From Candidatus Gastranaerophilales bacterium (lineage in GTDB: Bacteria > Cyanobacteriota > Vampirovibrionia > Gastranaerophilales > Gastranaerophilaceae): DNA of 64,000 bases. A program made the translations under genes and the position numbers. The DNA is taken from NCBI GenBank assembly GCA_944325785.1, contig CALVBN010000001.1, forward strand, positions 441,002 to 505,001, given 5' to 3'. The notes under the pieces are model-generated. The model did no database searches and was not told where the DNA came from. It worked only from the letters and a program-made list of their open reading frames with translations. Of this stretch, positions 31,184 through 59,747 are shown piece after piece (position 1 is the first letter of the stretch; each line of letters opens with the position of its first letter).

Positions 31184-32086
31184 TCAAATAATTTCCTTTA
31201 TCGCTTTATGCAGATATTTAGGCAGGTCGGATGCAAGAACTGAATATTCGGTTAAATCTTCGGATGCAATTTCTCCGGTGCGGGAATGAAGATATACTCC
31301 GAGTTTTGCAGTTTCAAATAAATTTAAATTGTTATTCCCCTCTCTATTTACCCCATCTCTATTTACCCCCTCTCTGTTTACCACTTCTTTATTTATCCCT
31401 GTTCTATTTACCCCTAATCCATTTACCCCTTGAGCAAGAAGTCCTGCAATTATGCCTGCAAGAACATCGCCGGAACCGGCTTTTGCCAGCGCTGAATTGC
31501 CATGCCGGTTAATGAATAAATTATCATGATTACTGATTATCGTTCTGTGTGTTTTTAATACCGCAGTACAGTTGTATTTTTCCGAAAGTTTTCTGGCGCT
31601 TCCTTCCAAATCATCTAAAACTTCCTTGAGGGTTATGCCCAAAAGCCTTGAAGCTTCAAGAGGGTGCGGGGTTATAATAGTGTTTTTCGGAAGTTTTATA
31701 TCTATCCAGCTTAAAATATTCAAACCGTCTGCATCTATTACAGCCGGAATTTCTGTATTATTTATTTTATTAATAACTTTTTTGAATAAATCTTTGGATT
31801 TTTTCTCTAAGCCAAGCCCGCATCCTATAAGGACTACAGAGAAATCTTGTATCTGTTTTATTCCCTCTTTTCGCGAAAGATAAACAGCCTCCGGTAAAAG
31901 GGTTGAAACAGAGCGGATAATATCTTTTTCGCTTGCAAGCGCAACGAAACCGCCACCTATTTTTAATACGGATACTGTAGATAAATAAGAGGCTCCGATG
32001 TAATTTTTTGAACCGGAAAAATTCAGAACTTTTCCGAAAGTTCCTTTATTTGAATTCTGTTCGCGTTCTGGCATTTTATAATCCAA
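31184..32086 (-). CDS. nnrD: ADP-dependent NAD(P)H-hydrate dehydratase with in-frame repeat insertion
   Basis: NKGTFGKVL, IGCGLG, IDADGL, ITPHPLEASRL, LAKAGSGDVLAG. Confidence 0.95.
   Translation of the reverse strand: MDYKMPEREQNSNKGTFGKVLNFSGSKNYIGASYLSTVSVLKIGGGFVALASEKDIIRSVSTLLPEAVYLSRKEGIKQIQDFSVVLIGCGLGLEKKSKDLFKKVINKINNTEIPAVIDADGLNILSWIDIKLPKNTIITPHPLEASRLLGITLKEVLDDLEGSARKLSEKYNCTAVLKTHRTIISNHDNLFINRHGNSALAKAGSGDVLAGIIAGLLAQGVNGLGVNRTGINKEVVNREGVNRDGVNREGNNNLNLFETAKLGVYLHSRTGEIASEDLTEYSVLASDLPKYLHKAIKEII
31332..31430 (-). repeat. GGGGTAAAT-family 15-bp tandem array inside nnrD
   Basis: About six 15-bp units encoding GVNGL-GVNRT-GINKE-VVNRE-GVNRD-GVNRE. Confidence 0.9.
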
Positions 32087-32519
32087 TTTGTCTTATCACC
32101 TCATATGCTGTTATTGCAACCGAATTTGATAAATTTAGGCTTCTCTGTCCTTCTTTCATCGGAATAGTTATTGCTGTATCTTGTGTAACATATTCCATAG
32201 GTAGTCCGCGGGATTCCGGACCAAAAACAATAAAATCATTTTCCTTAAATTTAATGTCTGTGTATTTTTTCTTTGATTTGGTTGTCAGATAATAAAATGT
32301 ACCATTAGGAAACATTTGGAACAACTCCTCCATAGAGTTAATTCTATGCAGATCAACAGAGTCCCAATAGTCCATTCCCGCACGTTTGGTATATTTATCC
32401 GTCAGGGCAAACCCGAGTTTGCCAACCAGATACAAAGATGCACCCGTACAGGCGCATAATCTTGCTATGTTTCCTGTATTCTGCGGAATTTCCGGTTCAT
32501 ATAGTACAACATTGAACAT
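32076..32519 (-). CDS. trmL: tRNA (cytidine(34)-2'-O)-methyltransferase
   Basis: VVLYEPEIPQNTGNIARLC, FGPESRGLP, RSLNLSN. Confidence 0.96.
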   Translation of the reverse strand: MFNVVLYEPEIPQNTGNIARLCACTGASLYLVGKLGFALTDKYTKRAGMDYWDSVDLHRINSMEELFQMFPNGTFYYLTTKSKKKYTDIKFKENDFIVFGPESRGLPMEYVTQDTAITIPMKEGQRSLNLSNSVAITAYEVIRQIGL

Positions 32520-33106
32520 TATTTTTTCTCAAATAAATATTTTGACTCAATAATAACTGGCAATCCTCTTACTACGCAGAATACAATTGCGAAAATTGCT
32601 GCCCAGTAGCCGATTGTCCAGATAATTTCTCTATGCGGGCAGACAGGCATTTTTGCAGTAATAATTAATATAAAAGCCAGAACTTTAGCTACTGCATAGC
32701 TTATTCTCATAAATTTGGAACCTGTAATAAACTTGCAGACAGGATTAACCTGCATTCCAAAAGGTGTAAGTCCGTGTTCCATAGCAGCGCTTCTTATTGT
32801 ATCAGTAATAAATCCTCTTGTAATAGCAATCAAGGGGAATAAAATATTTAGCCAGCCCATAACTGCAAATAAAATCCAGTAAGTGTTTTCTACAATTCTA
32901 TCGCCCATAATATCTAAAAGCGCGCCGAATTTTGATTCTTCGTGGAGTTTTCTTGCAACATACCCGTCAACACCGTCAAGAGCGAAAGCCAAAATTGTCA
33001 ACCCGAGCGCCCATAAATATGCCGGAGTATTTCCCTGGCATGTGTATATAAGATACACCGCAAAGAACATTACAAAGATTCTGAATATTGATATAAAGTT
33101 TGCCAT
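32519..33106 (-). CDS. CDP-alcohol phosphatidyltransferase (PgsA-like)
   Basis: DGVDGYVARKL...FGALLDIMGD family motif. Confidence 0.92.
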   Translation of the reverse strand: MANFISIFRIFVMFFAVYLIYTCQGNTPAYLWALGLTILAFALDGVDGYVARKLHEESKFGALLDIMGDRIVENTYWILFAVMGWLNILFPLIAITRGFITDTIRSAAMEHGLTPFGMQVNPVCKFITGSKFMRISYAVAKVLAFILIITAKMPVCPHREIIWTIGYWAAIFAIVFCVVRGLPVIIESKYLFEKK

Positions 33107-33130
33107 TTTGGACTCCTTGTTTAAGTTATT

Positions 33131-33151
33131 GTCGGGCAGTGCCCGACCTAC
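33131..33151 (-). repeat. GTAG-family REP-like palindrome
   Basis: Minus strand GTAG-GTCGGGCA-c-TGCCCGAC. Confidence 0.7.
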
Positions 33152-33183
33152 ATTCTATATTTGAAGATGTTTTTCGATTCACT

Positions 33184-57929: not shown

Positions 57930-58135
57930 TGAAAACACCAAAAATATCAAACATTTCAATTAAACCTACAGAGAGAAAAATTAAAAAGGCTAAACATTAC
58001 GCTGAAACAACAGGTGTTCTGCCAAAGGAAATGCCGATAGAAAAAAAGGTATATTTGGAAACAAATGCAGATACCTTTGAACGTATTAAAGATAAAATAC
58101 AAATCGCAATAGACAATTTGAAAGGGCAGAAATAG
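57929..58135 (+). CDS. Small hypothetical protein
   Basis: 68-aa ORF overlapping the asd stop and abutting the next gene; contains NADTFE. Confidence 0.65.
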   Translation: MKTPKISNISIKPTERKIKKAKHYAETTGVLPKEMPIEKKVYLETNADTFERIKDKIQIAIDNLKGQK

Positions 58136-58136
58136 C

Positions 58137-58607
58137 TTGGGTAAATTAGTTTCTCAAAAAGAAATAATAGATATTGTTAAATCCGGACAGGCACAGGGCA
58201 AAACATATTCTGCTACAAACGGTTGTTTTGATATTTTGCATGTAGGGCATGTAAGGTATCTTCAGAAAACAAAATCGTTAGCGGATTATTCTATTGTCAT
58301 GCTTAACTCTGATAAGTCTGTAAAGATGATAAAAGGCGAAGGCAGACCTATTAATAATGAGCAGGACAGGGCTGAAATATTAAATGCTTTGAGTTGTGTT
58401 GATTATGTGGTATTATTTGAAGAGAAGTCGCCGGCGGGTTTGCTGGAGGCAATAAAACCGGATATTTACACAAAAGGCGCTGATTATACGCTGGAAACGC
58501 TTCCGGAACGAGATATCGTATTAAAAAATAATATAAAAGTAGAATTTATAGACTTTGTAAAAGGTAAATCTACAACTAATGTAATCAATAAGTGTTTAGA
58601 TAAATAA
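58137..58607 (+). CDS. rfaE2: D-glycero-beta-D-manno-heptose 1-phosphate adenylyltransferase (RfaE domain II)
   Basis: TNGCFDILHVGHVRYL, LNSDKSVK, RPIN, KGADY, KSTT. Confidence 0.93.
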   Translation: MGKLVSQKEIIDIVKSGQAQGKTYSATNGCFDILHVGHVRYLQKTKSLADYSIVMLNSDKSVKMIKGEGRPINNEQDRAEILNALSCVDYVVLFEEKSPAGLLEAIKPDIYTKGADYTLETLPERDIVLKNNIKVEFIDFVKGKSTTNVINKCLDK

Positions 58608-58619
58608 AAGGAGTGTATT

Positions 58620-59747
58620 ATGAAAACTTTCACATTGGAACAGATTGCTCAGATTACAGGCGGTATGCTTTCAAAGGCAAAAGACGTAGCAATAACCAGA
58701 ATTGCACCGCCCTTGCTTGCAGATGAAAACACATTGGCTCTTGCGCTAGGTGAAGATGAGATTGCAAATCTTTCTTCTACAAAAGCTCAAGCTGCGCTCG
58801 TTCCTCTTGGAGTTAATATAGATGGTTTTTCTACCATAGAAGTTGAAAGACCGCGTCTTGCAATGATGAAATTAATAAGCATGTTCTATGAAGAACCGCA
58901 TGTAAATTCCGGAATTCATCCGACTGCAACAGTTCATCCTTCCGCAAAACTCGGCCAGAATGTTTCTCTGGGACCAAATGTAGTAGTTGGTGAAAATGCT
59001 CAAATCGGTGATAATACAAAGATTTTGGCGAACTGCTATATCGGAAACGGTGCAATTATTGGTAATAAATGCTTTTTCCATCCGGCAGTATGCATAGGCG
59101 ACAGAGTTAAAGTAGGCAATGATGTTATACTCCATCACGGCGTATCTCTCGGCGCTGACGGTTTCAGCTTTGTTACAGAAAATCCTAATAACATTGAACA
59201 GGCAAGAAAAGATGGCGAAATTAAAGAAAATAACATAGAACAGGTTATCTTTAAAATTCCTTCTATCGGTTCTGTAGAAATTGGCAACAACGTTGAAATC
59301 GGAGCAAATACAGCAATCGACAGAGGCACAATTGAAAATACCGTAGTCGGCGATAATACAAAAATAGATGACTTGGTTATGATTGGTCATAACTGCCGTA
59401 TAGGAAAAGGATGTATGATTGTTTCTCAAGTCGGTATCGCAGGAAGCTGTGTAATCGGAGATAGAGTCGTAATCGCAGGTCAGGCTGGTCTTGCAGATCA
59501 TATTAGCATCGGTGATGATACTATTATCGCGGCTCAAGCCGGTGTAACTAAAAGCTTCCCTGCTAAATCAATCGTCGTTGGCGCTCCGGCTGTTCCGAGA
59601 AAAGAATTTATTAAACAATTAAAGATAATTAAAGACGCAGGTGATTTGATTGCTAAATTCAAAAAATATGAACCGCTTTTACGCTCATTCGAAGATGGGG
59701 TAAATGAAGGGGTAAATGAAGGGGTAAACGAAGGGGCAAAGGTTTAA
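58620..59747 (+). CDS. lpxD: UDP-3-O-acyl-glucosamine N-acyltransferase
   Basis: Hexapeptide repeats, GADGFSF, EIGANTAIDRGT, VMIGHNC, QVGIAGS. Confidence 0.96.
   Translation: MKTFTLEQIAQITGGMLSKAKDVAITRIAPPLLADENTLALALGEDEIANLSSTKAQAALVPLGVNIDGFSTIEVERPRLAMMKLISMFYEEPHVNSGIHPTATVHPSAKLGQNVSLGPNVVVGENAQIGDNTKILANCYIGNGAIIGNKCFFHPAVCIGDRVKVGNDVILHHGVSLGADGFSFVTENPNNIEQARKDGEIKENNIEQVIFKIPSIGSVEIGNNVEIGANTAIDRGTIENTVVGDNTKIDDLVMIGHNCRIGKGCMIVSQVGIAGSCVIGDRVVIAGQAGLADHISIGDDTIIAAQAGVTKSFPAKSIVVGAPAVPRKEFIKQLKIIKDAGDLIAKFKKYEPLLRSFEDGVNEGVNEGVNEGAKV
59697..59741 (+). repeat. GGGGTAAAT-family 12-bp array in the lpxD 3' end
   Basis: ggggtaaatgaa x2, ggggtaaacgaa, ggggcaaag; encodes GVNE-GVNE-GVNE-GAK. 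Confidence 0.9.

Follow-up and report, generated by a model that had tools for sequence, protein, structure and literature searches.

We analyzed a short DNA word, GGGGTAAAT, that recurs in a 64,000-nt stretch (hereafter, the window) of G000, a metagenome-assembled genome (MAG) of a gut Gastranaerophilales (Melainabacteria) bacterium, where it occurs as isolated copies and as short tandem arrays, several of them inside genes. We consider it probable that GGGGTAAAT is a genus-restricted, over-represented word of double-stranded DNA that also undergoes local tandem growth, with the products filtered by what the encoded proteins tolerate. In the window there were 21 matches to GGGGTAAAY against a mean expectation of 0.83, and none of 100 dinucleotide-preserving shuffles reached that number.

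The G000 genome (2.09 Mb, 36% G+C, 99% complete) belongs with gut Gastranaerophilales MAGs, which carry the LpxD relatives at 84-98% identity. It contained 205 copies of GGGGTAAAT, 98 forward and 107 reverse, as compared with ~15 expected from an order-3 Markov model, so that the genome-wide enrichment of the repeat core was confirmed. The enrichment amounted to 14-23x, and among the strongly enriched 9-mers GGGGTAAAT was the most abundant; in the high-count congener G008, of which 395 kb were sampled, it likewise ranked first among 9-mers. Variants with a single mismatch were just 1-3x enriched, the TAAAT half of the word was conserved as sharply as the G-run, and isolated copies presented an extended consensus, A-GGGGTAAAT-R-T-A, with flanks weaker than the core. 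The 205 copies were distributed as 116 isolated (57%), 62 in arrays and 27 inside a longer repeat element (see below); most copies of this over-represented word therefore stand outside tandem arrays. Clusters of at least two cores numbered 42 in G000, with periods of 8-24 nt, a constant core and a locus-specific spacer. The density was ~1 per 10 kb in G000 and 1 per 5 kb in G023, the richest genome. Full-text literature searches returned no paper on this word in Melainabacteria, in agreement with the proposal of an earlier note on this DNA that the repeat is undescribed; the repeat family is real and lineage-specific.

The orientation of the 205 cores was determined relative to open reading frame (ORF) calls: 61 were sense, 40 antisense, 11 supplied a stop codon, 1 lay over a gene start and 92 were intergenic. 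Fifty-one of the sense cores were in the frame GGG-GTA-AAT and ten in the frame GGT-AAA, and the stop-supplying copies, 11 genome-wide, were in the frame G-GGG-TAA. Under a codon-pair Markov null, GGG-GTA-AAT had 38 occurrences where 8.5 were expected, which placed it 2nd of 19,570 codon triplets, and its reverse complement, ATT-TAC-CCC, had 15 where 1.9 were expected (rank 5); the remaining top-ranked triplets were poly-A lysine runs. The G008 sample gave a similar picture, i.e., 13 of its 46 G-V-N sites were GGGGTAAAT versus 0.69 expected, and in the low-count genome G024 the figure was 2 of 27 versus 0.48 expected, which is not significant. At synonymous sites, therefore, both strands are enriched, and this points to double-stranded DNA, not RNA. 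Polarity of the Chi or KOPS type was looked for against local GC skew, and orientation showed no bias (85 to 76), although the skew of this draft genome tracks gene strand and showed no replichore pattern. The rule of the earlier note, by which the mRNA strand is the G-rich one throughout, is thus not general, given the 61 sense and 40 antisense cores and a reverse word equally enriched at I-Y-P codons. It fails for single copies within the window itself, because those at 20187 and 49835 are antisense in genes. An RNA-level cause of the enrichment is unlikely, and our best guess for its driver is a protein system that recognizes double-stranded DNA; this could be an uptake-signal-like drive by way of natural transformation, or else a HIP1-like (HIP1, highly iterated palindrome 1) or binding-site constraint.

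Alignments with orthologues indicated how single copies originate. Twelve isolated in-gene copies could be aligned to G008 or G024 orthologues; 11 of these alignments were ungapped, showing substitutions or the identical word, and one presented a clean 9-nt insertion. At the asd site (57246) 40 relatives varied in synonymous codons and seven had exact GGGGTAAAT, while at the site in the gene of the CCA-adding enzyme (49835) the I-Y-P peptide was ancestral and relatives deviated by single substitutions; both copies lie in conserved peptides. These observations bear on a simpler explanation, according to which the word is a plain slippage-prone microsatellite and its isolated copies are relics of collapsed arrays or products of codon-context chance. 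Copy-number steps between strains (see below), the abundance of other short tandem repeats in the genome and its strong codon-context effects would agree with this. Nevertheless, we regard it as distinctly doubtful: both orientations rank at the top under the codon-pair null, isolated copies sit at ancestral conserved peptides where relatives differ by substitutions, single-mismatch variants are barely enriched, and the same word heads arrays with periods from 8 to 16 nt at ~40 independent loci, and does so in many species.

The sites in the window were located with Tandem Repeats Finder and by direct reading of the sequence, and host genes were identified with NCBIfam as NAD(P)H-hydrate dehydratase (nnrD), RsmE and LpxD (Table 1). 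The earlier note had listed six arrays plus one singleton; all seven sites were present, at or a few bases from where it had placed them, and four further single copies (2079, 20187, 49835 and 57246) had been missed. Its gene assignments for nnrD, rsmE and lpxD held, as did its statement that the arrays in them read G-V-N and have a period divisible by 3.

Table 1. Arrays and single copies of the word in the window (nt positions).
Feature	Position	Strand	Description
nnrD in-frame array	31337-31431	minus	15 nt x 6.3; gene 31184-32086 (minus)
rsmE N-terminal array	51570-51597	minus	two cores 12 nt apart; reads GAGVNKGVNG; gene 50859-51617 (minus)
lpxD C-terminal tail array	59697-59740	plus	12 nt x 3.7; (GVNE)3, then GAKV and stop; gene 58620-59747
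Intergenic array	34550-34594	minus	15-nt GGGGGGTAAATGAGA x 2.8
Intergenic array	39763-39791	plus	10 nt x 2.9
Decaying 12-nt array	55687-55782	plus	starts at the final G in the TAG codon that ends ORF 54216-55688
Single copy	30119-30127	plus	TAA is the stop of 5'-nucleotidase-like gene 28548-30125, frame G-GGG-TAA
Single copy	2079-2087	plus	sense, G-V-N frame, FAD-binding aminoacetone-oxidase-family gene 1089-2246
Single copy	20187-20195	plus	antisense within Nudix hydrolase gene 20100-20630 (minus)
Single copy	49835-49843	plus	antisense within CCA tRNA nucleotidyltransferase (CCA-adding enzyme) gene 49457-50875 (minus), read I-Y-P
Single copy GGGGTAAAC	57246-57254	plus	asd gene 56916-57929, at conserved A-G-V-N-D-E

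Among the intergenic arrays, that at 34550 sits in the divergent spacer between genes 33208-34206 (minus) and 34669-36654 (plus), and that at 39763 starts 4 nt past the stop codon of the hyfF-like gene 38329-39759, with 30 nt between its end and gene 39822-41285. Spacers orthologous to the 55687-55782 site were unrelated in sequence in relatives. In five of the loci compared (L001, L002, L026, L029 and L063) the same spacer has ATTTACCCC, in the orientation opposite to that of the window array and adjoining a conserved terminator hairpin, AAAAAGCCGCAA...TTGCGGC.

The nnrD array adds ~32 residues, (GVNxx)n, between two helices. None of the 29 relatives compared, of which 24 belong to the same genus, had the insert, and their loop reads AQ[K/G][M/L]xxFEAAKLG; residues 2-220 and 253-300 matched as blocks that are adjacent in the relatives' DNA. 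The (GVNxx)n segment is therefore a lineage-specific insert, and these relatives provide the empty sites that the earlier note had proposed to look for. Within one 90% protein cluster, NnrD variants of 296, 291 and 282 aa were found, the 291-aa form differing by a single 5-residue unit and the 282-aa form by an in-frame block of 14 residues, with some units homogenized; other species carry their own GVN-type inserts at the same loop. In an AlphaFold2 model of NnrD, residues 222-252 had a predicted local distance difference test (pLDDT) score of 30-38 and were disordered, between helices 206-220 and 256-278. RsmE proteins of one 90%-identity cluster ranged from 242 to 263 aa, with the variation in the N-terminal array segment, and rsmE genes of relatives were either without this segment or had other versions of it. 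The LpxD tail in 80 species was FEE-[S/G]VNE, with 0-3 units; distant forms read SVNE, encoded by AGT GTA AAT GAA, so at lpxD an ancestral sequence resembling the word was first sharpened to it and later duplicated. The view that the repeat invaded genes is thus misleading: the nnrD and rsmE segments are lineage-specific insertions, but most isolated copies arose by substitution, and lpxD was seeded by the ancestral SVNE. The GVN peptides of nnrD and rsmE are not ancestral, as the earlier note required, and those of single sites such as asd are.

Other hosts of in-gene arrays were GrpE, a UvrD-like helicase of 1343 aa, a prophage portal protein, a member of the WavE family and three unnamed proteins. 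Of 10 in-gene arrays, 7 were no farther than 10% of the length from a protein end. Copy number, read from protein-cluster variants, was polymorphic between strains for nnrD and rsmE and across species for lpxD, always in in-frame steps. In their unit-number polymorphism, their location in loops and termini and the growth attributed to slippage, these arrays resemble coding variable number tandem repeats (VNTRs). VNTR units, however, are normally locus-specific, whereas here one 9-mer seeds arrays at dozens of unrelated loci. The in-gene arrays gave no sign of phase-variable frame switching: their periods are multiples of 3 and every strain variant was in frame. Periods of 10, 11 and 14 nt occurred among the intergenic arrays near promoters. 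One of these, at C9:44902-44953 of G000, is a perfect 11-nt x 5 array, GGGGTAAATGA, that lies upstream of ndk and on the other strand, and it is a candidate for copy-number-dependent promoter spacing because its period is not a multiple of 3.

In-gene arrays were mainly sense, 12 versus 2 antisense (two-sided p = 0.013). The two real antisense cases were G000 C3:9556-10278, which encodes FTPSFTPSFTSS... (the F-T-P-x reading) and whose orthologue in G008, 41% identical, is without the expansion, and a transglycosylase-like protein of G024 with SFTPGFTPGFTPG. Four apparent antisense arrays were discarded: C9:44902 and C1:24413 are actually upstream of ndk and gpmI, and two more are in a repeat element, not in genes. 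Stop codons cannot explain the sense bias of the arrays because all three antisense frames are open. Counterselection of antisense arrays as Rho utilization (rut) sites was ruled out, since Rho is absent: its RNA-binding domain (PF07497) was detected in 0 of 25 Gastranaerophilales genomes, with 9 of 14 control genomes scoring. Photosynthetic cyanobacteria are likewise not known to have Rho. Of 90 intergenic or gene-edge loci, 25 fell between -7 and +14 nt relative to the stop codon of a gene in the same orientation. This clustering at or after stops fits a logic of tolerance, because TAA + AT already makes up 5/9 of the word and there is little constraint on C-terminal tails.

In our proposal, two separate processes act on the word. 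The first is visible in the data: copies accumulate on both strands, mainly by point substitution at look-alike sequence, such as G-V-N, I-Y-P and F-T-P codons, stop codons (TAA + AT) and spacers. In the second, slipped-strand mispairing or unequal exchange between neighbouring G-runs would duplicate the word plus its trailing spacer, consistent with the polymorphism observed, and would yield short arrays with a locus-specific period (8-16 nt) and a copy number that varies between strains. Selection would presumably act as a filter, such that the survivors in genes are in-frame arrays at termini and surface loops, mostly with the hydrophilic G-V-N-x sense reading and rarely with the F-T-P-x antisense reading, and copies in the third frame would supply a stop codon.

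What the earlier note had suggested instead was a spreading micro-repeat that is inserted in genes in the sense direction, possibly with an RNA-level function or an RNA-templated (reverse-transcribed) origin. The lineage-specific insertions in nnrD and rsmE, the 12 to 2 sense bias, the loci near co-oriented stops and the isolated copy that is a clean 9-nt insertion would all fit such an element. However, no reverse transcriptase domain (RVT_1, PF00078) was found in the 99%-complete G000 nor in the high-count genomes G007, G012, G016, G019 and G023, and reverse transcriptases are present in the low-count genomes G010 and G024, i.e., the predicted co-distribution with the repeat does not hold. 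As RNA, the arrays had essentially no secondary structure (z-scores of +0.7 to +1.5 for 4 of 5 arrays), and neither they nor the longer repeat elements had a match in Rfam. Together with isolated copies that are equally enriched in antisense and arise by substitution, the antisense arrays in real genes and the prediction of a G-quadruplex for only some arrays, these results speak against an RNA-level function and an RNA-templated origin, and we find the micro-repeat explanation very improbable. Arrays of at least three GGGGTAAAT units were present in 5 of 2.9 million IMG/VR viral contigs (L172-L176), one of which had two GGGGTAAAT arrays 3 nt apart.

It could also be argued that the arrays exist in order to form G-quadruplexes, the sense bias being the result of selection against template-strand quadruplexes. 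With G-quadruplex energies included in the in silico folding, the arrays at lpxD (as RNA) and 34550 did form four tetrads (-17.8 and -20.0 kcal/mol, versus ~-3 for shuffles), and the word was contained in 18 of the 59 quadruplex-type motifs of G000. No quadruplex was predicted for the other four window arrays (nnrD, rsmE, 39763 and 55688), though, most copies are isolated, and the sharply conserved TAAAT half is not required for a quadruplex, all of which makes this explanation extremely improbable.

Within the genus the word count ranged from 12 to 404 per genome, and other families of the order were near background. G023, G008, G016, G012, G007 and G000 were classified as high-count genomes and G009, G010, G013, G014, G011 and G024 as low-count. 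In an nnrD tree, low-count G009, G010, G013 and G014 clustered together, and G011 and G024 formed long divergent branches; this clustered distribution indicates that word abundance is heritable and has been gained or lost. A comparable alternative word in low-count G024 was sought and rejected, as its top k-mers belong to a longer repeat element. The phylogenetic clustering, the sharply defined core with weaker flanks, the fixed core and variable spacing of the arrays and their grouping near gene ends and in divergent spacers would be compatible with GGGGTAAAT being the binding site of a lineage-specific protein (nucleoid-associated, regulatory, or a single-strand or RNA binder), with arrays as selected site clusters. 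A similar binding-site proposal was made for the TAACTGA heptamer repeats (MacGregor 2015, PMC4679880). This is nonetheless an unlikely explanation for our word, because over half of the copies are isolated and many are in coding sequence, where regulatory sites would be unexpected, the position relative to start codons is inconsistent, array copy number drifts freely between strains, and no candidate protein was identified.

A further possibility is that GGGGTAAAT serves as a self-recognition word, which some system particular to the lineage would recognize in double-stranded DNA. In its most attractive version it would be a DNA uptake sequence for natural transformation. Biased uptake followed by recombination would drive it into coding sequence wherever the change is synonymous or conservative, and the arrays and Gly-Val-Asn loops would be side-products that arise as this drive meets a slippage-prone G-run. 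The likeness to the uptake signal sequences (USS) of Pasteurellaceae and the DNA uptake sequences (DUS) of Neisseriaceae is considerable: a sharp, non-palindromic word of 9-12 bp, exact and over-represented on both strands, in genes and spacers, often just after genes, and restricted to a clade. As in those systems, the word has preferred reading frames, with both orientations top-ranked and a point-substitution origin visible in orthologues. The competence core is present here as well, G000 having ComEC, DprA, a secretin and pilins. On the other hand, the density stays below the ~1 per kilobase of USS and DUS, and the 14-23x enrichment is weaker than in the classic cases. Competence genes are equally present in congeners without the word, so that natural transformation is plausible and the uptake idea is permitted, not diagnosed, by the data. 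Loss of competence genes in low-count genomes was considered and rejected, as they are intact in G024, G009, G010 and G013. At G011:C80:6865-7407 a DprA match is interrupted by TAG and is without the first 30 profile positions, and G014 and G021, whose assemblies are incomplete, have no main DprA match. Overall, we hold the uptake version to be possible, though not likely.

Other known systems share part of these features. HIP1 (GCGATCGC) is, like GGGGTAAAT, an exact short word that is strongly over-represented, patchy among relatives, embedded via codon choice and of debated cause, and it belongs to a sister lineage, the cyanobacteria; it is, however, palindromic, tied to methyltransferase sites and without tandem arrays, whereas our word is asymmetric, neither GGGGTAAAT nor ATTTACCCC being self-complementary. 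The short tandemly repeated repetitive (STRR) sequences of heterocystous cyanobacteria and the TAACTGA repeats (PMC4679880) are, as here, few-copy direct repeats of one word at many loci, with no known function. STRR sequences are tandem heptamers and mainly intergenic; the present repeat has instead a 9-nt core with a locus-specific spacer, is mostly non-tandem (57% isolated) and is often in frame inside genes, which hold ~10 of its arrays. TAACTGA sets, unlike GGGGTAAAT arrays, sit just upstream of start codons (PMC4679880). The Rickettsia palindromic elements (RPEs) offer a parallel in that in-frame repeats are tolerated in housekeeping proteins, to which they add surface peptides. RPEs are roughly 100-150 bp in size and are palindromic mobile units, in contrast to these 9-nt words, which have no palindrome and grow in place.

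Several points weigh against our proposal of a genus-restricted DNA word with local tandem growth. USS, DUS and HIP1 are not known to form direct tandem arrays, and classic uptake sequences are about tenfold denser than this word. We found no gene present in step with the word count, and low-count genomes, too, have ComEC, DprA and the secretin. Slippage is a mechanism suggested by polymorphism in repeat-unit steps. The sense bias of the arrays may come from peptide tolerance, i.e., of G-V-N-x as compared with F-T-P-x or I-Y-P-x, and as a sole explanation this is a weak point of the proposal. Finally, the gene calls were crude longest-ORF calls, and an independent-codon null proved too lenient, with many CGGCGG-type triplets deviating equally, so that the codon-level claim rests on the codon-pair null.

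Other repeats were observed in the same genome. Element A is a palindromic repeat of ~200 nt that resembles a miniature inverted-repeat transposable element (MITE); it is present at 6203-6290 of the window, at C4:146250-146900 and C6:1-170 of G000 and at ~25 other sites. Its terminal inverted repeats are CGTCATTCAGAGG...CCTCTGAATGACG; it further contains a GNRA hairpin, GGCTCGTAAGAGCC, with a central CTTCACN heptamer array, and its left end often presents 0-3 tandem 52-nt units beginning with GGGGTAAATGTAATTG. Its terminal-repeat 13-mer was counted 64 times in G000, 16 in G016 and 3 in G012, and essentially nowhere else. Element A was rejected as the origin of the word, since CGTCATTCAGAGG is nearly confined to these three genomes and the word is abundant in many congeners; being nearly private to G000, it is a carrier of the word and not its source. 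A second structured element of ~200 nt, ...GGAGCGGATTTGCGGACGGACG-[loop]-TAGTCCGGATAGCGAACAGATGGAGCC..., has seven copies in G000 (C3:170098, C8:69850, C6:34607, C1:18008, C10:66232, C12:11062 and C15:4476); the loop of its hairpin is a GGGA tetraloop in the shortest copy and is replaced by GGGGTAAAT-type arrays in four.

G000 is also rich in STRR-like tandem repeats of two kinds, one of 7 nt built on GTGA and the other of 8 nt built on GTTTAG, which often form inverted array pairs 50-80 nt apart; those of the window are at 6248-6274, 15104-15133, 33177-33203, 41305-41337 and 55920-55945. A second over-represented word, CATGCCGG(C) and its complement GCCGGCATG, was noted in the G000, G008 and G024 samples. 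The codon triplet GCC-GGC-ATG, encoding A-G-M, was one of the top-ranked, with 23 occurrences where 5.7 were expected, and this word may be HIP-like and independent of GGGGTAAAT. The window further contains an AdoCbl-II cobalamin riboswitch (53350-53423; 38.6 bits, above the gathering threshold) upstream of ORF 53456-54244.

The observation of the earlier note is thus confirmed, and its interpretation is supported in part. Over-represented DNA words and strain-variable arrays generated by slippage are both of known kinds; here we see them combined, with a genus-specific word at the core of the arrays. If this reading is true, an uncultured gut genus would possess a genome-wide signature word like USS/DUS or HIP1, and if the uptake interpretation were true, GGGGTAAAT would be the first DNA uptake sequence from the cyanobacterial lineage and from a gut genus of Melainabacteria. 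The gene responsible should be findable by phylogenetic profiling, because sister species span 12-404 copies. The arrays are likely to be a cause of assembly breaks, and they could be used as strain-typing markers for Gastranaerophilales in metagenomes. The word would also reshape proteins, seeding hypervariable disordered loops in essential enzymes such as NnrD, RsmE, LpxD, GrpE and the UvrD-like helicase.

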